32,000 nt of DNA from Bacillus subtilis subsp. subtilis str. 168 (lineage in GTDB: Bacteria; Bacillota; Bacilli; Bacillales; Bacillaceae). Of this stretch, positions 3,248 through 31,387 are shown in pieces (position 1 is the first letter of the stretch; every line of letters starts with the position of its first letter). The notes beneath the pieces were generated by a model. That model had not been told where the DNA came from, did not search any database, and was given only the letters and a program-made list of their open reading frames with translations. The stretch lies in assembly GCF_000009045.1 (NCBI RefSeq), contig NC_000964.3:2190001-2222000 (forward strand), given 5' to 3'. The position numbers were made by a program, and so were the translations under genes.

Positions 3248-3661
3248 TCAATTAGTATTCATCCATTCATCGAAGCTATAAGGATAATCAACAGTCTCTA
3301 TAAACCCTATTTCTTTTGCCTTCTGACGGATTTTCATACATCCTTCATAGCTGTAAGCCCATATTTCTTTATAATCCCTCAGCTCGCCGCATTTCCCTGT
3401 TATGATGAACTTTCTAAAACTGTTGACCAGTTGCCACATGTTGCCTCCATGCGAAAAGCCGTTTGGACTCCCGTATCCCATTTCATACGGATAAACGTCA
3501 TCACCCGTGTAATCATCAACGAAGAACAGTTTTTTCTTAAACCTGAAATACGCTATACGATCCTTTGACTTGCGGTAGAATGTACGATGATCAATGCTTG
3601 CAATAAGCTTTATCAGATCATTAATATCGTTCATGCGTTTTATTTGCTCTTGATTTGGCAC
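3248..3661 (-). CDS. yoqU: Hypothetical protein, 137 aa
   Basis: GTG start at 3661, 7 nt after GGAGGT. No domain recognised. Confidence 0.75.
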   Translation of the reverse strand: MPNQEQIKRMNDINDLIKLIASIDHRTFYRKSKDRIAYFRFKKKLFFVDDYTGDDVYPYEMGYGSPNGFSHGGNMWQLVNSFRKFIITGKCGELRDYKEIWAYSYEGCMKIRQKAKEIGFIETVDYPYSFDEWMNTN

Positions 3662-7120: not shown

Positions 7121-7324
7121 CTATCTGTTAAACACATAATCATCAGTTAATTCCCTCTTGAATCGATAAAACTGTTTTATTTGATTTAGATCAATCCCAA
7201 CCCAGCAATTGTCCACCATCCACCCTTTTGGTTTTAATTCACTTACGAAATGCTTTCTGGCTTCAATATCATCAGAATATATGTACAATCGTTCTTCATA
7301 TGTTCTTTCTTCTATTAGTTTCAG
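7121..7324 (-). CDS. yoqK: Small ORF (67 codons) with no canonical start after a strong SD; possibly the N-terminal part of an interrupted yoqK-yoqL gene
   Basis: SD TAAGGAGAGGTGA (7331-7343) is followed 6 nt later by CTG 7324. The frame opens after TGA 7331-7333 and ends at TAG 7121-7123, in the same frame as yoqL. Confidence 0.4.
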   Translation of the reverse strand: MKLIEERTYEERLYIYSDDIEARKHFVSELKPKGWMVDNCWVGIDLNQIKQFYRFKRELTDDYVFNR

Positions 7325-8312: not shown

Positions 8313-8765
8313 TCAATAACAGGACTCAATATTTTTCGTTAATATACTTGGCCCCAACTTTTGTGTGCTAGAATTTGACAGACGCACTTGCACTTTAACA
8401 TTCTTCATTTCGGCCGAAATTGTGTCAATTCTTCCCGCCCAACTAGGACTCTCTTCCTCAGGAGTAGGATAAAGTTTAAACCGCCAACTAATCTCACCTG
8501 GTTTAGTAGCAAATCCTTCGTAACTGTCGTAATTTCCAAAAGAAGAAGGTGCAGGAAGATGGACAGCAAGAATACTTATATTGGTTCTGGCAGCACTCGG
8601 TGGGTTCAATTGCACCTTATAGATTAATGCTACACCTTTAGCATTTTTAAGATTTTTATCTACCGGCTCCAGTATTACACTGCAAGGCATTGGACTGGCG
8701 TTTGTTTGAATGGGATAGGCAACAATAATACTTAAAAAGGATAAAACTAAAATAAATCGTTTCAT
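8313..8765 (-). CDS. yoqH: Secreted protein, 150 aa
   Basis: SD GTGAGGAA. Signal peptide is MKRFILVLSFLSIIVAYPIQTNA/SP. Confidence 0.75.
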   Translation of the reverse strand: MKRFILVLSFLSIIVAYPIQTNASPMPCSVILEPVDKNLKNAKGVALIYKVQLNPPSAARTNISILAVHLPAPSSFGNYDSYEGFATKPGEISWRFKLYPTPEEESPSWAGRIDTISAEMKNVKVQVRLSNSSTQKLGPSILTKNIESCY

Positions 8766-9579: not shown

Positions 9580-10335
9580 CTATGATGCTATTTCTCTTTT
9601 GTGCCCATGTTTCTTTAGAAGATCAACAATAAAATCGGCACCTTTAGGAGTAACAAGAGTAATTGTTTTAATTCCAACACTTGTCTCCTGGGTCTTCACT
9701 TGAAAGAATCCTCTTTCTACATATTTTTGATATGGGGCGTTTTTGTTTGTTCCATCAATAAGAACTTTATTTTCCCTCAAAAAGCGAAATAAATTGTTTT
9801 GGCCCATTCCTTTTATGCCAATTGCTTTTGCCACTTGTCCTATTTTCATTAATCCATCTGTATTAAGAAAGCGATCATATTTCTCCACTTTTGGTTCAGC
9901 CAATGTTAATTGCTCCTGCAATTCTCGTTTTGCTTTTCTTTCAGTGAAATAAGCAATGGCACGTTCATCTTCATTCATATCTAGATATGTATCAATTAGG
10001 GACGGTCTTGCTTTTAACGCCTTCTCCATTTCTTCAAATTTAGAAACATATTGAGCTGTGAATAATACCCCTTTAGCACCAGTCATTTTATTAGCAACCA
10101 TATCGCATCCTTTTCGGGTTAAATGGAAATGCTTCAATGAGCGACCAGTTGCATCTTTATATGTACTTTCTAAGAAAAATTCCACTGAACGCAATTTTGC
10201 GTTTAGTAAGATCGCTACATATCCATCAATACTTCTAAGTAAATCTGTATGTCTCTTACCTACCATCTCTGCCACTTCACGGCTGTCAACCAAAAGCTGT
10301 CCATTCTGTTCAATTACTGTTAGATAACTTTCCAT
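9580..10335 (-). CDS. yoqD: Phage regulatory protein: Rha-like N-terminal domain plus KilAC/antirepressor-type C-terminal domain
   Basis: Start reset to ATG 10335 (SD GGAGGT). VDSREVAEMVGKRHTDLLRSI matches the Rha family. The C-terminus (IGQVAKAIGIKGMGQNNLFRFLRENKVL...APYQKYVERGFF) matches KilAC/ORF6C antirepressor domains. Confidence 0.8.
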   Translation of the reverse strand: MESYLTVIEQNGQLLVDSREVAEMVGKRHTDLLRSIDGYVAILLNAKLRSVEFFLESTYKDATGRSLKHFHLTRKGCDMVANKMTGAKGVLFTAQYVSKFEEMEKALKARPSLIDTYLDMNEDERAIAYFTERKAKRELQEQLTLAEPKVEKYDRFLNTDGLMKIGQVAKAIGIKGMGQNNLFRFLRENKVLIDGTNKNAPYQKYVERGFFQVKTQETSVGIKTITLVTPKGADFIVDLLKKHGHKREIAS

Positions 10336-13014: not shown

Positions 13015-13021
13015 CTCCTAT

Positions 13022-13041
13022 ATACATATTATTTGTATTTG
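13022..13041 (-). promoter_or_regulatory. SPBRE-type repeat copy (operator-like), between the yopV -10 box and SD
   Basis: ATACATATTATTTGTATTTG, with inverted half-sites ATACA/TGTAT. This is one of six copies in the window. Confidence 0.75.
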
Positions 13042-13377: not shown

Positions 13378-13596
13378 TTACTCAGGCAATTCTTCTGTAT
13401 TTGTTATTTCATATTCCATATCACTTAATTTAAAATTTTCAACTGATCCGTCAGCTTTTAAAAACGAGACTTCTTTAGATAAAAGTAAATTTTCACAAAT
13501 CCTGGTTACTAATGTTTCAGAGACTTCTGGACTATCTGCTTTGTTTTTGAGTACAATCTCCAGATTCAGTGCAATATTGTTTAAATAACCTGCCAT
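13378..13596 (-). CDS. yopT: Hypothetical protein, 72 aa
   Basis: Track ORF trimmed to the second ATG at 13596 (MAGYLNN...), 7 nt after AGGAG. Confidence 0.65.
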   Translation of the reverse strand: MAGYLNNIALNLEIVLKNKADSPEVSETLVTRICENLLLSKEVSFLKADGSVENFKLSDMEYEITNTEELPE

Positions 13597-13630: not shown

Positions 13631-13762
13631 CCCTTAAGGTGTTAAGGGAACGTGCGTTCTGTTTTGTATAATCATTATACATAGAAAGTAGGTGTTATGC
13701 TAGTGGTTATTTATCGGCTTCGTATGGTATGATATGTATTATGTCTTTCCATAACAGAACGC
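13631..13762. promoter_or_regulatory. Divergent yopT / yopS control region with nested inverted repeats and back-to-back TATAAT boxes
   Basis: CCCTTAA-ggtg-TTAAGGG (13631-13648) and GAACGtgCGTTC (13648-13659). A 17-bp palindrome TGTATAAT-c-ATTATACA (13665-13681) gives TATAAT on both strands. GCGTTCTGTT (13654-13663) is inverted with AACAGAACGC (13753-13762). Confidence 0.5.
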
Positions 13763-13778
13763 AGGAGGATGTCCGATT

Positions 13779-14003
13779 ATGATTAAAGTTGAGATCGGGC
13801 AATGCTTGATACCTGAATTATGTAGAAAGAAAGACATTACAATCAATGAACTTTCAGAGATAACTGGGATTAAGAAACAGCAGCTGAGCGACTATAATCG
13901 ATTAGTTAAAGTAGATATGTCTATTCGAACTGCAAAAAGAATTGCTGCTGCTTTAGATTGTAATGTCGAAGACCTCTATGAATTCAAGGTTGAAAGGCAT
14001 TGA
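13779..14003 (+). CDS. yopS: XRE-family HTH DNA-binding protein, 74 aa
   Basis: SD AGGAGGA 9 nt upstream. The HTH is ITINELSEITGIKKQQLSDY. Confidence 0.85.
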   Translation: MIKVEIGQCLIPELCRKKDITINELSEITGIKKQQLSDYNRLVKVDMSIRTAKRIAAALDCNVEDLYEFKVERH

Positions 14004-14006
14004 AAC

Positions 14007-14028
14007 GACTAAGACTTTGGTCTTGGTC
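14007..14028 (+). terminator. Hairpin after yopS
   Basis: GACTAAGAC-tttg-GTCTTGGTC. The T-tract is weak. Confidence 0.45.
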
Positions 14029-14144
14029 TCCTCCTTAGTAAACCATATGGTTTACATGACCATCTTACTACATTTAAACATGTATTTAAAGTGATTATTT
14101 TGTCTATTTTTGTCGAAATGCGAATTTTTTCACAATTTTTTGAG

Positions 14145-14186
14145 ATAAAAGAAAAATCCATTTAACCAAAATAGTCAAATGGATTT
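14145..14186 (-). terminator. Intrinsic terminator after yopR
   Basis: On the minus RNA: AAAUCCAUUU-13 nt-AAAUGGAUUU followed by UUCUUUUAUCUC. Confidence 0.75.
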
Positions 14187-14191
14187 CATAT

Positions 14192-15169
14192 TTAAATGGT
14201 CGTCTCTTTTAGACCTAGTTCTTCTGCGTAATATTTATTAACTTCTTCCTCATTAATATAATCTTGCATTGAATAAACTGCTCGATATTTGGATTTTACC
14301 CTTAAATTAAAGTCATCTATAATCTGATACCTTACAGAGTTATCAATAACCCCTTTTTCTTTATAAAGCTGATATGCTCTATACAAATGACCAGATCTAA
14401 CAATAGTATTTGGTGTTAAAAAGTTAATTTTAAAGAACTCAGATATATCAGTAATTAGATTAGTTATGACAAATTTACTTGCTTGGCCGTCTCCTTTGTT
14501 GGACGTTCTTTTTGTTTTAACTACATAATCATTTTCAACTAAAAAGACTTCTTTTGTTTGGCCTTTTGCCTTCCCATTCTTTAATTTATATTTAGTTTCC
14601 TGAGCTGCATTTAAGGCAATAACAAGACATTCACTACTAACTTTTAGTTTTCGTTCACCGTGCTTTGAATCATAGAGGGTTAAAACGTTACCGTTAAGCA
14701 TTGCATCCTCAACTTGCTTCTTCGTTAAACTTAGCAATTCAGAATGAGCTAAACCAGAAACTCCTTCAAAAAGTAGTCTTAACACAGCCTTAGATTGATA
14801 ATTAACTAATTGATTTTCCATTTCCTCTAATTCACTATAAGTAATATATAATTTTTTGTCCCCGAGACATTCATAAAGCTCTTCTTCAGAAATAGTTCTT
14901 GCTAAATTGGTTAATCCTTTACTTAACTTATATGAAATTGCCCAATCAATATACAATGACAATAATGCTAAGGTTCTTCGAACACTACCGATAGTGGTTT
15001 GATCGAATGATCGTATAAGTTCTAAAATTTGCATTGATGTGAAATCATAAATGTCTTTATTATATAAAGTCTCAGTAATCTCTGCTTTTGCAAAAATAGG
15101 CCTCATCTGCATAACCATACCCTCAGATAAGGTATCTAAATATTTTTCCTTAATCTCACTATTGAACAT
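14192..15169 (-). CDS. yopR: Master lysogeny repressor with a degenerate tyrosine-recombinase fold (MrpR/SroF), 325 aa
   Basis: The track start TTG 15181 abuts AGGAG, so I reset to ATG 15169 (MFNSEIKEKY...). LLFEGVSGLAHSELLSLTKKQV resembles recombinase box I but lacks the catalytic Arg. Recognised as SPbeta YopR. Confidence 0.85.
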   Translation of the reverse strand: MFNSEIKEKYLDTLSEGMVMQMRPIFAKAEITETLYNKDIYDFTSMQILELIRSFDQTTIGSVRRTLALLSLYIDWAISYKLSKGLTNLARTISEEELYECLGDKKLYITYSELEEMENQLVNYQSKAVLRLLFEGVSGLAHSELLSLTKKQVEDAMLNGNVLTLYDSKHGERKLKVSSECLVIALNAAQETKYKLKNGKAKGQTKEVFLVENDYVVKTKRTSNKGDGQASKFVITNLITDISEFFKINFLTPNTIVRSGHLYRAYQLYKEKGVIDNSVRYQIIDDFNLRVKSKYRAVYSMQDYINEEEVNKYYAEELGLKETTI

Positions 15170-15192
15170 TGCAACAAACAACTCCTAAGTAA

Positions 15193-16575
15193 TTACTCGT
15201 CTATTTTTAAATTATTGAAGAAATTCCATATCTTTTGTGGTGATTTAGCATTTCCATTCTTGTCTACTACACCTAATTCATCCCACAACTTATTTTTCTT
15301 ACTAAAATCTATAGAGCCTAAAACATCAGTAATCTTACTTTCCAACTCGTCTAGGCTTACCCCATCTAATTGCAATTTCTTAGCTAATCCCACATAACCA
15401 TTAAAGAACAAATAGTTGTTTACAAAACTTCTCTTCCGTTCTTTTGCTATATCACCTAAGAACTCATCTACATATTGTGTAGCTAAAGCATCAAAGAAAG
15501 ATGTAAGGTATCTTGCAGTTTTTAAGATGTCTGCTTGAGTAGAAAAATCTTTTTTAGAATAGCTTCTTTCAATTGCCTTTTTGAAGTCAGAAAAAGTTAT
15601 AAGTAAGTTTTGATTCTGATTTATCCAGTCTCCATTTGTCTTTATATAATCACCAATTATGCTATTGTCCTGAATAAACTTAACAATTTTATTTGAATAA
15701 ACATTTTGACTCATCTCAGCCACTTTAGATTTTTTAACTGGGTTTATTGTGTTTTGTTGCCCAAAATGCTCTCTCGCCCTTTTTTGAGTGTAGTTATAGA
15801 TGTCCACTTTAAAGGTTTCTTCAAACAAATGATCTAACTCAGGATGTTGTCTTATAGCCATAGTAATGCCTATTAGCCGGTGATACCCGTCTAAAACGTC
15901 TAAAATGGTGTCTTCAGTCACTGTAAGAGACATAGTGTCGTCATCATATTTTAATTCTTCGCCACAACTTGCGCTTCCAACACGTGCATTAAACGTAAAA
16001 ACTGATTTAATTAATTTCCCATCTAAGAACAGTTCCTTTATTTCTTCAACCGATTGTTTATTGAGCTGCGGTACAGGTATCTCAATATCTGAGCCCTCTA
16101 GTTTTTTCGTTTTGTTCGTTCTTTGAGCATTAGGATTATAGTGCAATAACTTATTTTCAAATAGCATAAACAACTCTTTAGCAGTGATGGGGAAGAAATA
16201 ATTATCATCCGAATACTTTACAACTTGTTTGAATGTATACGGAAATTTTATATCTTCCTCCACAGATCCTTCCCATAACGTTTCAATTTCTCTCATATCC
16301 GTTTCTGTGAAGTAATTTCGTGGATTAAACCTTTCACTTTCAAGAACTGAGTATAGGGACTTGGCTAAAAAGTACATATATTCTTTAGAAATTTCGACTT
16401 CTGGATTTTCTATATCATAAATTAATTTTTGTGTTGTCCCTGGAGTAATTTTATTTTTAGCCATCTCTAATTGAATATCGTTAATAAAAGATCTTATGTG
16501 TTTATTTTTCGAGATAGCATCTTTCATTTCTGAAAGCAGTTTCTCATTTGCAGACTGATCAAAGATCACTGTCAT
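15193..16575 (-). CDS. yopQ: DGQHR/DndB-like (ParB-Srx fold) protein, 460 aa
   Basis: Start reset to ATG 16575 (SD GAGGTGAAAGG). The LDVLDGYHRLIGI motif matches the DGQHR domain signature. Confidence 0.8.
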   Translation of the reverse strand: MTVIFDQSANEKLLSEMKDAISKNKHIRSFINDIQLEMAKNKITPGTTQKLIYDIENPEVEISKEYMYFLAKSLYSVLESERFNPRNYFTETDMREIETLWEGSVEEDIKFPYTFKQVVKYSDDNYFFPITAKELFMLFENKLLHYNPNAQRTNKTKKLEGSDIEIPVPQLNKQSVEEIKELFLDGKLIKSVFTFNARVGSASCGEELKYDDDTMSLTVTEDTILDVLDGYHRLIGITMAIRQHPELDHLFEETFKVDIYNYTQKRAREHFGQQNTINPVKKSKVAEMSQNVYSNKIVKFIQDNSIIGDYIKTNGDWINQNQNLLITFSDFKKAIERSYSKKDFSTQADILKTARYLTSFFDALATQYVDEFLGDIAKERKRSFVNNYLFFNGYVGLAKKLQLDGVSLDELESKITDVLGSIDFSKKNKLWDELGVVDKNGNAKSPQKIWNFFNNLKIDE

Positions 16576-16681
16576 ATAGCCTTTCACCTCATGTCATGTT
16601 GCTAAATTTAAAGTTACCAAAGGCAATCTGGTTAATCAAGAAGAATTATCATTTGAACTGAGTAATATACCGAAAAAATGA

Positions 16682-17758
16682 TTATCGCTCATTTACATGC
16701 TTTATAAACTTTTTTAATGTAACAAGATCAGCGTTTTCAAAAAAACTAATAAAATCCTCTTGGGTTGCTTCATATAGTGGATTTAAATCGATTTTTTCAT
16801 CCATTGTTACACCAGCAGAGTTCGCTATGTTAATCTTTCTGCTCATATATCTCTCTGTTGTTAATGTGTTTTTATGATTTCCTTGTTCTTTTGCTGCAAG
16901 TAAATCGTGACCAGAATTCTCATAGACATAGTCAATTCCTACACCCTTAAATGAGTGTAAGACTAATTCTCTTTCAGGAGGTATTCCTAACCTTTTTTTC
17001 GACCTTTTTAAGGAGTGTCGTAAAGATTGTTCCGAAAGCCCCTGAAAAACCAATTCAGTTTCGCTGTCATCCTCTTCCTTCAGCTGCAACAATTCCTCAT
17101 AAAATACCTGGTTAATGCCTGTAGACACAACCTGAGATCCTTTATCAATAACTGTTACTATATAATGGCCTGTACTTTCATCAAGCTGTATGTCTTTCCA
17201 TCTTACTCGCAAAATCGCACTTACACGAAAAGAAGTTCTGATGGCGAATTTAACAAACAGCTTTTTCATTAAAGGTTTCTGTCTTTCATTTATATACATA
17301 TCCTGAGCGATTCTTTCGGCTTCTGTCTGGGTTGTTTTATCCCAGTTTTTAGTTACTGTTTTAAGCCTTTCGACAGTATTAAACACCGACAAGTCAATAT
17401 AGTCCTTATAATCATGCTCCAAATATGTATAGAGCATCTTCAAGGAGGTCATTTTTCTGTTAATACTATTATTAACTAATCCCTTTTCCTGAAGATACTT
17501 CACATAGTTGCTTAATTCGCTTTTACTTACAACTAAATCATCGGGAACTAAACTTTTGACATCTTTACCTTTAATCACACTAAAGAACTGCTTAATATCC
17601 CCTTCATAATTCTTTCTGGTGTTCGACACCCTTCTAGTTGATGAAGGCATCATATAGTTAGAATTCCCTGAGCTACTTCTTATATCTTTATTGATTAAAA
17701 AGCCCTCGATATCATCGTAAACCGCATAATTTTTTAATTGTTTAATTTTATTTTGCAT
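16682..17758 (-). CDS. yopP: Tyrosine-recombinase (phage integrase family)-like protein, 358 aa
   Basis: Start reset to ATG 17758 (SD AAAGGAGGAG). Contains AIRTSFRVSAILRVRWKDI (Arg I), DKGSQ (Lys), HSFKG (HxxR with R to K) and GNHKNTLTTERY (His and Tyr). Confidence 0.85.
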   Translation of the reverse strand: MQNKIKQLKNYAVYDDIEGFLINKDIRSSSGNSNYMMPSSTRRVSNTRKNYEGDIKQFFSVIKGKDVKSLVPDDLVVSKSELSNYVKYLQEKGLVNNSINRKMTSLKMLYTYLEHDYKDYIDLSVFNTVERLKTVTKNWDKTTQTEAERIAQDMYINERQKPLMKKLFVKFAIRTSFRVSAILRVRWKDIQLDESTGHYIVTVIDKGSQVVSTGINQVFYEELLQLKEEDDSETELVFQGLSEQSLRHSLKRSKKRLGIPPERELVLHSFKGVGIDYVYENSGHDLLAAKEQGNHKNTLTTERYMSRKINIANSAGVTMDEKIDLNPLYEATQEDFISFFENADLVTLKKFIKHVNER

Positions 17759-17960
17759 TATCTTCTCCTCCTTTCTCATCTAATAACTCATCAATAGAGA
17801 CATTCAACACCAGAGCGATAAGCTTTATGGTTGTAACATCTGATTCATCTGGCATTTCAATGATTTTGTTTAATGTCTGCATATCAATCATTGTCTCCCT
17901 CGACAATTCCTCTATTGTGATGCCACGTTTGACCATTAGCTGTTTTATTCGCTCTGACAT
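17748..17960 (-). CDS. yopO: Small XRE-type HTH protein, 70 aa
   Basis: SD GGAGGT. The HTH is ITIEELSRETMIDMQTLNKI. The 3' end overlaps the yopP start by 11 nt. Confidence 0.8.
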   Translation of the reverse strand: MSERIKQLMVKRGITIEELSRETMIDMQTLNKIIEMPDESDVTTIKLIALVLNVSIDELLDEKGGEDNAK

Positions 17961-18007
17961 GTCAACCTCCTATTTTTATGTATACTATAGACTGCAGTGC
18001 GTATATG

Positions 18008-18328
18008 TTATGGTTGATAAATAAACTCTTCAAATTCAATTGCAATGTGTCGTTTTAAATTCTTCACAAAATGTATTAGGGATCTAAAATGCGGATTATT
18101 TTCAATGCTTCTTTTTAATCCATCTCCACCTAATAATACTCTATTTAGATCTTTTAATAATGCTGCTATCTCTATTTTTGCACCATGTAGATCATCTTCA
18201 GTTTTTGCATTAACAATCATTTTCCTAATGTTTAGTACACTCTCTATGTAAGTTTGTTTAGCATTTAATACAAAATCGGCATCAATATCTTTATGATTTG
18301 TAGACCTAAGTTCTACAACATGCATCAT
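18008..18328 (-). CDS. yopN: Hypothetical helical protein, 106 aa
   Basis: The ATG overlaps the yopM stop (TAATG). SD GGAGGA. Confidence 0.75.
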
Positions 18329-18528
18329 TAATCCTCCTTGTATTCGCTTAGCAATTTCATGTATCCTTTAGTTAGTTGTTTTCGAACATTTTCATTCTTC
18401 ATTATTTTTGACTTTTCAATGCTTTTTTCATGAAAAAACAAATCATTTTTAACTAAGCTTTCAACTTTCTTTTGGTAAATGGTTTTATGCATTGTCATAC
18501 TGTTTTTTAAGTAACTAATTGCGGACAT
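18328..18528 (-). CDS. yopM: Hypothetical helical protein, 66 aa
   Basis: SD TAGGAGGTTGG upstream of ATG 18528. Confidence 0.75.
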
Positions 18529-18544
18529 ACCACCAACCTCCTAT

Positions 18545-18565
18545 ATACATATTTTTTATCTTTTG
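18545..18565 (-). promoter_or_regulatory. Degenerate SPBRE-type repeat abutting the yopM SD
   Basis: ATACATATTTTTTATCTTTTG. The first 13 nt are identical to the consensus, and the right half-site is degenerate. Confidence 0.5.
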
Positions 18566-18705
18566 CATCTATAGCAATTGTAATGCATTACAAAAGGGAA
18601 GTAAAGATTTTTTTAACGACAAATAGCACATTCTACGCAATTTTTTTGCGAATGTGCTGCTTTGTAATGCATTTCATTTAATTAGGGTGTATGTATTTGA
18701 AGTTG
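18566..18705 (-). ncRNA. aimX: AimR-controlled leader / aimX-equivalent transcript region (boundaries approximate)
   Basis: This 140-nt stretch lies between the operator and yopM and has no SD-led ORF. It holds a long hairpin (18625-18658) flanked by TTGTAATGCA motifs. By analogy, arbitrium aimX lies directly downstream of the AimR site. Confidence 0.35.
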
Positions 18706-18742
18706 ATCACTAGATGTTATTAAAACCTAATATTTAAGTGAT
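18706..18742. promoter_or_regulatory. AimR operator: ATCACT-N25-AGTGAT
   Basis: Perfect 6-bp inverted repeats at 18706-18711 and 18737-18742, separated by 25 bp, just downstream of the aimP terminator. This matches the spaced site I recall for SPbeta AimR. Confidence 0.75.
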
Positions 18743-18756
18743 GGCCTTAAAACTAC

Positions 18757-18790
18757 AAAAGACGCTTAGCTCAAAAGAGCCAAACGTCTT
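18757..18790 (-). terminator. Intrinsic terminator after aimP
   Basis: On the minus RNA: GACGUUUGGCUC-UUUU-GAGCUAAGCGUC then UUUUGUAGUUUU. Two G-U pairs become C-A mismatches on the plus strand, so the hairpin is minus-strand specific. Confidence 0.75.
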
Positions 18791-18854
18791 CCTTTTCTCT
18801 GTTTAATTTAATTAAATAAATAATAATACTAATAACTTTATGTGTCAATGGATT

Positions 18855-18980
18855 TTATGCTCCACGTGGCATTCCAGCAACCTCATAATCACCTGAAGCT
18901 TGTTGGATTGAAGAATCTGCACTTATGTAAGAAGTGCCTAGTGCGCCCAAGATAACTAAAGCCATAATAAGTTTTTTCAT
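18855..18980 (-). CDS. aimP: Arbitrium pro-peptide, 41 aa (mature signal = C-terminal GMPRGA)
   Basis: Untracked ORF MKKLIMALVILGALGTSYISADSSIQQASGDYEVAGMPRGA. SD AAAGGAGGTGA. It has a Sec signal peptide and lies 13 nt downstream of aimR. Confidence 0.92.
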   Translation of the reverse strand: MKKLIMALVILGALGTSYISADSSIQQASGDYEVAGMPRGA

Positions 18981-18993
18981 TGTCTCACCTCCT

Positions 18994-20154
18994 TTAAAGT
19001 AAAAGTAATTCTAAAAGTTTTTGATTTTCACCCATCTTTTGCAGTTCTAACAGTGGCAGCCTAATAAGGAATTTGTCATTAGACTTTTTAAAATACTCGA
19101 TTGAAGAATAGAAACATGCTTTATTTTGTTCGAGTCTTCCTTTCAAATAATAATGCATTGCAAGCTCATTATCGTTGTGAACTAAAAGATCTAGTTTATC
19201 CAAAACTTCTTTTGCTTTGGAATTTTCATTAAAGTTGATAAAACAATGAGCTTGCTCCTGCAAATCCATAATTGAATCAGATTCAAAATTAATCCACTTA
19301 TTTTCTTTGCGCCATACATTATTTAAGAAGCACAAAGCCTGCTGGAAAATCATGTTGTAATTTTCATTTTGAACAGAAATGCTTAGCCCTTTTAAAAAGT
19401 TTTCTTGAGCCAATTCATAATTCGAAAATAATAGAGAGTTGCCAATAGTTAAGTAGCTGAAAACCTGAAATCTCAGGATATTTGTACTTTCCAATGCCTT
19501 TTTAGAGTACTCTCTGCACTCCTCTAATGAATTTTCATTTAACTTTATATTAGACATTAGAACATGAACTCTTGTTTGATATGTATTTCTAATGTACATG
19601 TTCTCAGAAATCTCACTTAGGTCAATTTGTTTTATAAGTTGGGCCATCGGAGAAAAGTTACCAGTGCTTAAATAATGATAAAGCAGCAAGAGTCTTGAGA
19701 AAGAATTCATTTCAGGTGTTTTTATATTTAATTTGCCGAGTCTTTTCACTGCCTCAAATTCAGTAATAACACTGTTAGACAGTTCTCTATGTATTTTATA
19801 CACTTTTCCATATTCTTTACTTTTCATATTGCTGCAAGAAATCATTGAATCTATTAAAACATCTTCTATTTCAAAAAACATATTTGCATCAGCATACTCC
19901 AATGCACTTCTTGCTGCCTTTGTCTTAACATCTAGGTTTAAACAGTAATCTTTCATTAATTCATATTCACGGTCTGGATACTGACTCTTAACAATGTTGA
20001 CTATTGAAGAAAATTCATTAAATGTTTTCCCATCATGGTTTAAGAAGTCATAAAGAGGATTGGGGTTTTTAAGGCCAGCTACTGTTGCCCATTTATTCAT
20101 TAAAGAGTTGTCATTTTCCAAGTCTTTCTTCATAGCTATCCTTATTAACTCCAT
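18994..20154 (-). CDS. aimR: Arbitrium receptor / transcription regulator (N-terminal HTH plus TPR-like peptide-binding domain), 386 aa
   Basis: Track ORF MELIRIAMKKDLEN... It is all-helical and repeat-rich, with RRNPP-like architecture, and is recognised as SPbeta AimR (yopK). SD GAGGGGA. Confidence 0.92.
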   Translation of the reverse strand: MELIRIAMKKDLENDNSLMNKWATVAGLKNPNPLYDFLNHDGKTFNEFSSIVNIVKSQYPDREYELMKDYCLNLDVKTKAARSALEYADANMFFEIEDVLIDSMISCSNMKSKEYGKVYKIHRELSNSVITEFEAVKRLGKLNIKTPEMNSFSRLLLLYHYLSTGNFSPMAQLIKQIDLSEISENMYIRNTYQTRVHVLMSNIKLNENSLEECREYSKKALESTNILRFQVFSYLTIGNSLLFSNYELAQENFLKGLSISVQNENYNMIFQQALCFLNNVWRKENKWINFESDSIMDLQEQAHCFINFNENSKAKEVLDKLDLLVHNDNELAMHYYLKGRLEQNKACFYSSIEYFKKSNDKFLIRLPLLELQKMGENQKLLELLLL

Positions 20155-20197
20155 TATTTCCCCTCATTTCTTTTTGTTGTCTTTATTGGTTAACTTA

Positions 20198-20226
20198 ATA
20201 ATACTATAGATCACATTACGAGTCAA
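20198..20226 (-). promoter_or_regulatory. SigmaA-type promoter of aimR-aimP
   Basis: On the minus strand: TTGACT, 17 nt, TATTAT. Confidence 0.65.
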
Positions 20227-20233
20227 TTATTTT

Positions 20234-20253
20234 ATACATATTTTTTGTATTTG
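20234..20253 (-). promoter_or_regulatory. SPBRE-type repeat copy, 7 nt upstream of the aimR -35 box
   Basis: ATACATATTTTTTGTATTTG, identical to the consensus. Confidence 0.75.
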
Positions 20254-27639: not shown

Positions 27640-27659
27640 TTTAACTACCTCCTGTTTTT

Positions 27660-27679
27660 ATACATATTATTTGTATTTG
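27660..27679 (-). promoter_or_regulatory. SPBRE-type repeat, promoter-proximal copy (between -10 and SD of yonX)
   Basis: ATACATATTATTTGTATTTG. Confidence 0.75.
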
Positions 27680-27716: not shown

Positions 27717-27723
27717 TAATTAA

Positions 27724-27743
27724 ATACATATTTTTTGTATTTG
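27724..27743 (-). promoter_or_regulatory. SPBRE-type repeat, distal copy (7 nt upstream of the yonX -35 box)
   Basis: ATACATATTTTTTGTATTTG. Confidence 0.75.
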
Positions 27744-29513: not shown

Positions 29514-29765
29514 TTAGTGTGACTTGTTTCTTAGTTTAAGGAATACACAATAGATGATCCATAACAATATGGCAATGATACATGTGACAACAAAAATTGT
29601 GTTGATTAGCGCCTGTCCTTCGCTGCTGAAGTAATCTTTGATGAGTTGAAACATTAAGAATAAGCCAATGAATGTGATATGGGTAAACCATAATGAGAAT
29701 CGTTTCATGTTTGCAATGTGCTTGATCATGTTATAATATGGGTAGGAACTAAAGGAGAAGTTCAT
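29514..29765 (-). CDS. yoyJ: Small membrane protein, 83 aa (second toxin of the yonT locus)
   Basis: Track ORF with two TM helices. It sits immediately downstream of yonT, as I recall for yoyJ. Confidence 0.7.
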   Translation of the reverse strand: MNFSFSSYPYYNMIKHIANMKRFSLWFTHITFIGLFLMFQLIKDYFSSEGQALINTIFVVTCIIAILLWIIYCVFLKLRNKSH

Positions 29766-29850
29766 TCCCCTTTAGCTTAGCTCTCATCGGCGTATACGTT
29801 GGCGTTGTCTCTTTGGTCGGAGCCGCTTGCGTATACGCTTTTTCTTTTTG
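29744..29850 (+). ncRNA. Antisense RNA over the yoyJ 5' end and yonT 3' end (SR6-type type I antitoxin); ends approximate
   Basis: The plus strand carries an extended -10 box, TGtTATAAT (29729-29737). Two palindromic GCGTATACG copies (29790-98 / 29829-38) can pair, followed by TTTTTCTTTTT. The inferred length is about 100 nt. Confidence 0.55.
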
Positions 29851-29960
29851 CTTGTCCCATTCTTTAGGTTTCTTACCTTCTCAACTATTGTTAGACTGTT
29901 GATTGTAAGAACCGTTAAAGATATGAGGAAAGCAACTACGATACCCATTTTCTCAAGCAC
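29784..29960 (-). CDS. yonT: Type I toxin YonT, 58 aa (TM helix plus Arg/Lys-rich tail)
   Basis: The track start lies inside the SD. I reset it to GTG 29960, 6 nt after AAAGGAGGTG. The sequence is MLEKMGIVVAFLISLTVLTINSL...KKKKRIRKRLRPKRQRQRIRR. Confidence 0.88.
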   Translation of the reverse strand: MLEKMGIVVAFLISLTVLTINSLTIVEKVRNLKNGTSKKKKRIRKRLRPKRQRQRIRR

Positions 29961-29996: not shown

Positions 29997-30013
29997 TAAT
30001 TCATGATTTTTAT

Positions 30014-30033
30014 ATACATATTTTTTATATTTG
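30014..30033 (-). promoter_or_regulatory. SPBRE-type repeat over the -35 region of yonT
   Basis: ATACATATTTTTTATATTTG, with one mismatch in the right half-site. Confidence 0.65.
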
Positions 30034-31060: not shown

Positions 31061-31387
31061 CTAATGTTCTTCGAACTCTTTTTTTAAAAGATAATACAGT
31101 AACTCTTTAGCTTGCTCTTCCGAGATCATTCCATTATATCCAGCAATTAAAGTCTCTGGATCATTTAATATCTCATCGAGATCAAATTGTGCATGTGTGC
31201 CTTTTAGAAGAAAGTCAGTAGATACTCCTAATATATTGCTTAATTTAGTAAGGGTTTTTAAATCAGGTTCAGCCTTACCAATTTCATATTTCCCATATCC
31301 CTGTCTCGTAATTCCTAAGAAATCCGCCATCCGTTGCTGGCTATATCCTTTGGAGGTACGGCATTTTTTTAAACGTTCTCCAAACAT
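31061..31387 (-). CDS. yonR: XRE-family HTH transcriptional regulator, 108 aa
   Basis: Track ORF trimmed to ATG 31387 (MFGERLKK...) after GTGAGGAA. The HTH is YSQQRMADFLGITRQGYGKYE. Confidence 0.85.
   Translation of the reverse strand: MFGERLKKCRTSKGYSQQRMADFLGITRQGYGKYEIGKAEPDLKTLTKLSNILGVSTDFLLKGTHAQFDLDEILNDPETLIAGYNGMISEEQAKELLYYLLKKEFEEH

Follow-up and report, generated by a model that had tools for sequence, protein, structure and literature searches.

The stretch of DNA analysed here, a window of 32,000 nucleotides from the chromosome of Bacillus subtilis subsp. subtilis str. 168 (NC_000964.3, positions 2,190,001 to 2,222,000 of the forward strand), carries a run of six minus-strand genes, yopM to yopR, at window positions 14192-18528, which is exactly the span from the yopM start codon to the yopR stop codon. 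Megablast finds positions 14000-20200 to be 100% identical over their full length to Bacillus phage SPBc2 (SPβ; AF020713 / NC_001884) and 97-99% identical to 12 SPβ relatives, and the six open reading frames (ORFs) coincide with the deposited NC_001884 genes yopM-yopR (window position w corresponds to NC_001884 position 96449−w on the opposite strand). With a probability of about 0.88, we identify the locus as the lysogeny-repression operon of SPβ, known as sro (yopMNOPQR = sroABCDEF) and already characterised. This very locus, with no difference from what is found here, has been in print since 2021 and is covered in detail by crystal structures, chromatin affinity purification sequencing (ChAP-seq) and genetics (Brady 2021, PMC8612738; Kohm 2023, PMC10516654; the preprint Chmielowska 2025, 10.1101/2025.11.27.690993), and the sroA-F names that an earlier note on this DNA had used do exist in the literature.

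The first gene in the operon, yopM (sroA; 18328-18528), encodes a 66 amino acid protein and is followed on the same minus strand by yopN (sroB; 18008-18325), encoding a small protein, yopO (sroC; 17748-17960), encoding a 70 amino acid Xre-type helix-turn-helix (HTH) protein, yopP (sroD; 16682-17758), encoding a tyrosine-recombinase homologue, yopQ (sroE; 15193-16575), encoding a DndB-like (DGQHR-type, ParB/Srx-related) protein, and yopR (mrpR or sroF; 14192-15169), encoding the master repressor, which has a tyrosine-recombinase fold made up of core-binding (CB) and catalytic (CAT) domains and a degenerate active site. Directly upstream, also on the minus strand, lie aimP (18855-18980), the arbitrium peptide gene, whose product ends in GMPRGA, and the arbitrium receptor gene aimR (18994-20154). 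Taken in order, the junctions from yopM to yopR are a 2-nt gap, a 47-nt gap, an 11-nt overlap, a 106-nt gap (between yopP and yopQ) and a 23-nt gap. The earlier note had described six tightly coupled minus-strand genes; the strand, the coordinates and the position after aimR and aimP hold, as does close spacing at four of the five junctions, leaving the yopP-yopQ gap as the exception.

A consensus scan places a promoter-like site (TTTACT-17-TACAAT; 18577-18605, minus strand) ahead of yopM. At the other end, an intrinsic-terminator-like hairpin of 16 pairs with a T-run behind it lies 5 nt past the yopR stop codon (14153-14187, minus strand) and is the 3′ boundary of the operon; NC_001884 also annotates a stem-loop here. 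The gap between yopP and yopQ (16576-16681, minus strand) is associated with a weak promoter-like site (TTTATA-16-GATAAT at 16708-16681) and with a stem-loop annotated in NC_001884 (16676-16694, minus strand) that overlaps the 3′ end of yopP. In transcriptomes of the dormant prophage, yopQ and yopR are transcribed (on microarrays yopP is too), and this weak internal promoter, recognised by its match to the consensus, may maintain yopQR transcription in the lysogen.

YopR matches the Pfam families MrpR_C_cat (PF22823; 4.9e-147, 487.6 bits) and MrpR_N_CB (PF22822; 1e-22, 81 bits), each with a cut-off of 27, and is identical in sequence to the protein in PDB entries 8BJV, 8BPZ, 8A0A and 8BJ6; structures of its homologue from phage ϕ3T, SroF, have been deposited as 9RD5 and 9RGL. 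That YopR is the SPβ master repressor was reported together with the operon and its domain calls (Xre, XerC-type integrase and ParB_N_Srx; Brady 2021, PMC8612738). The crystal structure of the protein, also named MrpR, has since been solved, its recombinase activity found to be lost and the heat-inducible c2 allele identified as G136E in yopR (Kohm 2023, PMC10516654). At the places equivalent to the recombinase active site YopR carries V137/S138, N254, V257/R258 and V291, with no arginine at box I, and both this numbering and the degenerate site (no Arg-I, His, Arg-II or His/Trp) match Table 3 of the same study. Across YopR-like proteins from six lineages all of the catalytic-equivalent positions are variable, and G136 (the c2 site), G139 and E144 are among the residues that are invariant. 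Clear-plaque and temperature-sensitive mutations map to yopR, and immunity is restored by ectopic YopR. The Pfam and PDB identities and the published work thus bear out what the earlier note had read in YopR, namely a recombinase fold that has lost its catalytic arginine and serves as a DNA binder, and what it had stated, that yopR encodes the master repressor MrpR/SroF and is the site of c2. The two-domain CB + CAT fold of the tyrosine recombinases (Cre, XerC/D, XerH and lambda Int) is present in both YopP and YopR; unlike these enzymes, YopR has no active site, does not recombine and binds as a monomer with extensive base read-out. We take from the literature that YopR is a repressor and that it is inactivated by its cognate antirepressor, Sar.

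The operators of this repressor, the SPβ repeated elements (SPBRE), are dispersed in the window. A pattern search with the SPBRE consensus TATACATATTWTTTRTMTTT returned six copies where 0.04 are expected by chance, a count reached in 0 of 100 shuffles. All are in a single orientation, at distances of 16-84 nt ahead of the start codons of yopV (13021-13040), yopM (18544-18563), aimR (20233-20252), yonX (two copies, 27659-27678 and 27723-27742) and yonT, which encodes the SpbT toxin (30013-30032). ChAP-seq of MrpR gave ten peaks, all at SPBRE, and the targets seen in the window (the yopV, yopM, aimR, yonX and spbT(yonT) promoters) account for five of these; binding of MrpR to SPBRE was confirmed by electrophoretic mobility shift assay (EMSA) and isothermal titration calorimetry, with the aimR promoter region among the DNAs used (Kohm 2023, PMC10516654). 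The earlier proposal that YopR acts on dispersed SPBRE copies is therefore well founded. At yopM the element is placed between the promoter-like site and the Shine-Dalgarno sequence, 16 nt from the start codon, which implies that the operon is autoregulated. More generally, every copy appears to lie either just ahead of the promoter or in the interval that separates a promoter-like site from the ribosome-binding site, an arrangement that would suit a promoter-proximal block. According to the literature, YopR binds as a monomer to these long A/T-rich elements before early and lytic operons, aimR and its own operon, and so keeps the prophage silent. The yonT gene itself (29784-29960, minus strand) faces an antisense RNA, the Rfam SR6 antitoxin RNA (29746-29849, plus strand; 128 bits against a gathering score of 55), and with an SPBRE upstream of the toxin gene this type I toxin-antitoxin pair appears to be under MrpR control.

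No CI/LexA-type protein, in which an HTH domain is joined to an S24 peptidase, was found in the Prokaryotic Genome Annotation Pipeline annotation of the 32 kb or among the HTH and larger proteins scanned against Pfam (a subset of the ORFs), in agreement with the earlier note. The HTH proteins of the window are single-domain: YonR (108 amino acids), YopB (75), YopS (74) and YopO (70). The last was correctly called a 70-residue HTH protein, with matches to HTH_3 (PF01381; 2.7e-11, 43.7 bits, cut-off 23) and HTH_26 (PF13443; 8.7e-10, 39.1 bits, cut-off 22). The divergent yopS gene (13779-14003, plus strand) lies between yopR and yopT and has a ϕ3T counterpart, phi3T_98, with 56% identity. The yonR gene (31061-31387, minus strand), which the earlier note had overlooked, encodes an Xre-type protein (HTH_3, 3e-16) annotated as 'transcriptional repressor'. 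YonR was once proposed as the SPβ repressor, and it might be argued that it, or YopO within the operon or YopS adjoining it, is the real lysogeny repressor and that the recombinase-like proteins are bystanders; a perfect palindrome overlapping the -10 of the yopM promoter-like site would be in keeping with this. We consider the idea highly improbable. YonR is poorly conserved, being absent from many SPβ-like phages, and can be deleted without induction; on these published genetics its candidacy is refuted and we rejected it. The clear-plaque and temperature-sensitive mutations, as well as the immunity conferred by ectopic expression, belong to yopR.

Two palindromes flank the coding part of the operon. 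A perfect 16-bp palindrome, TTGTAATGCATTACAA, at 18578-18593 is the one that overlaps the -10 ahead of yopM; a second copy with two mismatches is found 84 bp upstream (18662-18677), inside the aimX region. The palindrome resembles an operator of the kind bound by dimeric HTH proteins, perhaps YopO or YopS. A perfect 18-bp palindrome, GTAAACCATATGGTTTAC, unique within the window, is located at 14038-14055, between the yopR terminator and the 3′ end of yopS. As for the remaining small proteins of the operon, neither YopM (phrog_23684) nor YopN (phrog_31968, function unknown) matches a Pfam or NCBIfam family. Genetic evidence indicates that YopN favours lysogeny, and its positional counterpart in ϕ3T, phi3T_93, binds MazE; these small upstream proteins bias the decision towards lysogeny, in ϕ3T through the host MazEF system.

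The switch that relieves repression is encoded just outside the operon. The yopT gene (sar; 13378-13596, minus strand), two genes downstream of and beyond the limits of 14192-18528, encodes a 72 amino acid antirepressor (Pfam Yopt, PF09467; 5.9e-51). Sar, which is YopT in SPβ, is controlled by LexA and inactivates SroF by imitating the DNA to which SroF binds. Arbitrium provides a second, permissive gate that operates downstream of Sar, in ϕ3T via MazF (Chmielowska 2025, 10.1101/2025.11.27.690993). Some 50 nt upstream of yopT, and just downstream of a TATAAT-like hexamer that was read by eye, lies the LexA (SOS) box core GAAC-N4-GTTC (13648-13659), which fits LexA control of sar. This is the single exact match in the 32 kb, but at least one match is present in 23 of 100 shuffles, so that the argument rests on the position of the box and not on the count; a looser pattern allowing two mismatches gave 7 matches against 3.95 expected and is uninformative. 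By the published work, induction proceeds as follows: DNA damage inactivates LexA, yopT becomes expressed, Sar binds SroF by DNA mimicry and frees it from DNA, and for full induction a permissive arbitrium state (low AimP, AimR active, aimX expressed) is also needed. Of the earlier idea that the system is switched by the arbitrium output, the involvement of arbitrium as a permissive layer survives, whereas the direct switch is the LexA-controlled Sar/YopT, which had escaped notice. The SPβ system is thus like lambda CI and the LexA-type repressors in maintaining lysogeny and in having SOS-linked induction, but unlike them it has neither an HTH+S24 protein nor autocleavage, and its repressor is inactivated by a DNA-mimic antirepressor. 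A further gene in the window, yoqD (9580-10335, minus strand), has an Ant-type antirepressor architecture (Phage_pRha + KilAC/ANT) and is conserved in ϕ3T (phi3T_109); the demonstrated antirepressor, YopT, is unrelated to YoqD.

Downstream of the aimP terminator (18757-18792), an AimR operator-like inverted repeat, ATCACT-N25-AGTGAT (18706-18742, minus strand), presumably represents the published SPβ AimR box and with it the aimX control region. In ϕ3T aimX encodes a MazE-like peptide; SPβ aimX is without a clear ORF. For the intergenic RNA between aimP and yopM, folding gave z = -5.6 and predicted long-range pairing. We asked whether aimX RNA might pair with the yopM ribosome-binding site and so regulate it in antisense, and rejected the idea, the predicted duplex (-16.2 kcal/mol) being no better than the shuffle mean (-18.7), with 398 of 500 shuffles at least as good and a rank of 432 among 638 windows. 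Depletion of MazF sites, as reported for the ϕ3T operon (10.1101/2025.11.27.690993), found no support in the SPβ operon, where nine UACAU and three UACAUA sites are not below the shuffle expectation. The hexamer UACAUA is absent from 14188-17428 (minus strand), the 3′ 3.2 kb of the operon transcript that takes in most of yopP as well as yopQ and yopR (rough Poisson P≈0.03 from the density over the whole window, uncorrected and marginal), and yopN and the yopN-yopO spacer do carry MazF sites. With UACAUA missing from its 3′ part, the transcript could decay at different rates in its 5′ and 3′ halves.

The partner encoded immediately ahead of the repressor, YopQ, matches Pfam DndB (PF14072) over residues 137-461 with 58.6 bits (cut-off 29.1). 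The DGQHR-type motif that the earlier note had pointed out lies inside this match as D229-G230-Y-H232-R233; its D, G, H and R are invariant in 17 homologues, with Y, F or W at the middle position, and the invariant residues of the family include Q151, R152, N196, D229, G230, H232 and R233. Against NCBIfam the protein falls short, with 39.5 bits for TIGR03187 DGQHR (cut-off 58.85; the motif here is DGYHR) and 23.1 bits for the DndB equivalog TIGR03233, far below the cut-off of 328. There are no dnd genes (dndACDE) annotated in the 32 kb, and in all six lineages the neighbours of YopQ are two integrase-like genes. On the scores and the missing dnd genes we rejected the idea that YopQ is a true DndB; its fold is DndB-like, but the protein is not a DndB. 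Its AlphaFold2 (AF2) model (predicted local distance difference test score, pLDDT, 83) has an extra helical N-terminal region of ~110 residues, and a Foldseek search with the model returned ParB/Noc as five of the seven best PDB matches, with probabilities of 0.54-0.96, E-values of only 0.02-0.1 and low TM-scores. With the DndB/DGQHR proteins YopQ shares a Pfam score above the cut-off and the D-G-x-H-R and Q-R motifs, and it departs from them in the DGYHR/DGFHR form of the family motif, in its genomic setting and in the N-terminal extension; the link to the N-terminal (Srx-like) domain of ParB/Noc is a tentative one, through the nearest neighbours of its model. SroE, as YopQ is also called, has been described as a second repressor that is required to establish lysogeny and whose relation to SroF is 'still to be elucidated' (10.1101/2025.11.27.690993).

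The earlier note proposed that YopP, YopQ and YopR form one multi-protein repressor complex on SPBRE, flipped directly by the arbitrium output (aimX). The trio does remain linked, its gene order unchanged, in six lineages whose identity drops to ~21-26%, and such co-inheritance suggests functional coupling; in EMSA MrpR alone discriminates SPBRE from other DNA only modestly, and its authors proposed extra specificity factors (PMC10516654); and stabilisation of the SroF-DNA complex by SroE has been raised as one hypothesis (10.1101/2025.11.27.690993). We nevertheless think a complex of this kind unlikely. SroF is a monomer both in solution and in the ϕ3T SroF-DNA crystal, where it wraps almost completely round the DNA and, alone, reads 24 of the 26 bp (10.1101/2025.11.27.690993), and the literature examined reports no interaction among the three proteins. 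Deletion of yopQ does not induce the prophage, the direct switch demonstrated on SroF is Sar/YopT and not aimX, and the pairing of aimX RNA with the yopM 5′ untranslated region gave the negative result described above. The proposed complex thus outruns what is known, whilst the wider claim, that lysogeny is repressed by a non-canonical system centred on a recombinase-fold protein and having a DndB/ParB-like partner, stands.

YopP presents a different picture from its paralogue YopR. It exceeds the Pfam thresholds for both Phage_integrase (PF00589; 41.3 bits, cut-off 27.1) and SAM_1 (PF02899; 26.9 bits, cut-off 22.3). In a MAFFT alignment with Cre and XerD, the catalytic positions of which were checked by index, YopP R178 (in SFRVS), K206 (DKGSQ), H268 and K271 (HSFK), and H295 and Y304 (GNH...ERY) occupy the columns of XerD R148, K172, H244, R247, H270 and Y279. 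Five of the six residues of the R-K-H-R-H/W-Y set are therefore identical, and the second arginine is Lys271 in SPβ (R-K-H-(K)-H-Y), as the earlier note had described. We aligned eight YopP-like proteins from six lineages, with identity down to 26% (SPβ, B. atrophaeus, B. pumilus, ϕ3T, Geobacillus E3, Psychrobacillus Perkons, Staphylococcus phage SPbeta-like and Mammaliicoccus phi6255). R178, K206, H268, H295 and Y304 are among the 19 invariant positions, and position 271 is always K or R, being R in ϕ3T, E3 and Perkons and K in SPβ, Staphylococcus and Mammaliicoccus. The AF2 model of YopP is less good (pLDDT 65.6), with a poor catalytic half (<50 for residues 263-323); in Foldseek its top 43 matches are all tyrosine recombinases (Cre, Tn1549 Int, lambda Int and XerH), with E-values down to 3e-6 and TM-scores of only ~0.2-0.28. 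Searching PDB with sequence profiles of the YopP and YopQ families gave nothing significant.

The conservation pattern across lineages places in one operon a recombinase paralogue with a preserved active site (YopP) and one that has lost it (YopR). From its sequence, YopP/SroD would either still cut and rejoin DNA or, as an auxiliary factor, use its active-site residues to bind DNA tightly. It might even be a working tyrosine recombinase that is co-expressed with the repressors and is not a repressor subunit. In that case it would carry out a DNA transaction of its own: it could, for instance, resolve replicon multimers, or invert or nick a regulatory site. The invariance of the five residues and the restriction of the sixth to R or K, when YopR has drifted at every equivalent position, argue for an enzyme, as do the Pfam scores and the fold matches of the model, all of them to active recombinases. 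Moreover, yopP has been reported as a core gene of the SPβ-like phages, and integration of SPβ uses a different enzyme, the serine recombinase SprA (Kohm 2023, PMC10516654). Pulling the other way are the lysine in place of the second arginine in SPβ YopP, the low confidence of the model over residues 263-323 and the fact that no candidate recombination site was identified. SroD is reportedly an auxiliary repressor and SroABC a transducer module. Conserved 'catalytic' residues can also serve DNA binding, as Y304F weakens DNA binding by MrpR, which does not recombine (Kohm 2023, PMC10516654). Taking these points together, we regard a separate, working recombinase as a rather doubtful reading.

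The three genes are not confined to SPβ. The triad of YopP-like, DndB-like and YopR-like genes, with gene order and strand preserved, is also present in ϕ3T, Staphylococcus phage SPbeta-like (L004, 3346-6996), Psychrobacillus phage Perkons (L005, 3518-6951), Mammaliicoccus phage phi6255 (L006, 3379-7005) and Geobacillus virus E3 (L007, 3543-6993). Earlier work had presented this operon as peculiar to phages with arbitrium, but within ~3.5 kb upstream of the triad tblastn detected an AimR homologue only in ϕ3T, and none in SPbeta-like, Perkons, phi6255 or E3. The ϕ3T locus, used as a positive control, contains five copies of the published SroF box, the dispersed operator being present upstream of aimR and of the operon. 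In phi6255, a 17-mer, ACAAARATAAAATATAA, occurs five times at the locus where 0.01 copies are expected (352-368, 3319-3335, 7121-7137, 8615-8631 and 11336-11352 of L006), always upstream of genes, with one copy immediately ahead of the YopP-like gene and one just past the YopR-like gene. This repeat may be an analogue of SPBRE or, as it contains a TATAAT-like core, may merely be a promoter element. Directly upstream of the E3 triad we noted an unannotated ORF of 59 amino acids (L007, 3342-3521), the C-terminus of which, IRQQMIKGYMELL, resembles that of YopM; the likeness is weak (tblastn E 0.002 in a very small database).

A more ambitious reading of these findings is that YopP is catalytically competent and that the triad is an ancient, arbitrium-independent module of large Bacillota siphoviruses (here the phages of Bacillus, Geobacillus, Psychrobacillus, Staphylococcus and Mammaliicoccus) that would combine a live recombinase, a dead recombinase-fold repressor and a ParB/DndB-like protein. 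It draws on the active site being the best-conserved feature of the YopP family, on the occurrence of the triad without AimR in the ~3.5 kb upstream flank of four phage groups and on the dispersed repeat of phi6255. As a whole we would call it speculative and improbable.

The closest comparison for the SPβ operon is ϕ3T, in which the sro operon (phi3T_92-97) and Sar (phi3T_99) are found in the same order, with aimR-aimP-aimX, six genes, a divergent HTH gene and the antirepressor. The proteins of the two phages are 29-38% identical; they differ in operator sequence and in the second arginine of SroD, which is canonical in ϕ3T, and phi3T_94 has 39 amino acids to the 70 of YopO. This distance matters when the identification of the locus as the lysogeny-repression operon, with the roles assigned to its products, is weighed, for the DNA-bound structure and most of the data on Sar and MazF come from ϕ3T, whose SroF is only ~30% identical to YopR. 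Several other points weigh against that reading too. In one study, deletion of yopQ in an established SPβ prophage gave no induction; the earlier statement that yopQ is required agrees with the report on the establishment of lysogeny and not with this result for the established prophage, so that the label 'repressor' may fit establishment more than maintenance. In vitro, MrpR also binds weakly to DNA that lacks SPBRE, and its authors suspected additional specificity factors (PMC10516654). The mode of action of SPβ aimX is described in the literature as unknown, and MazEF affects SPβ only partly. The promoter assignments given here are consensus matches only, from a scan whose count is no higher than in shuffles, and the roles of SroD and SroE are given second-hand.

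In the SPβ sro operon, a phage has fashioned its master repressor from a dead integrase; a DNA-mimic antirepressor turns it off, and signalling between phages gates it. To this known picture the present analysis adds three pointers: the contrast between the conserved active site of YopP and the degenerate one of YopR, the occurrence of the triad outside the arbitrium phages and the invariant residues of YopQ. If YopP should indeed prove catalytically competent and the triad an ancient module, then an enzymatic DNA step would form part of lysogeny control or prophage maintenance in these phages.

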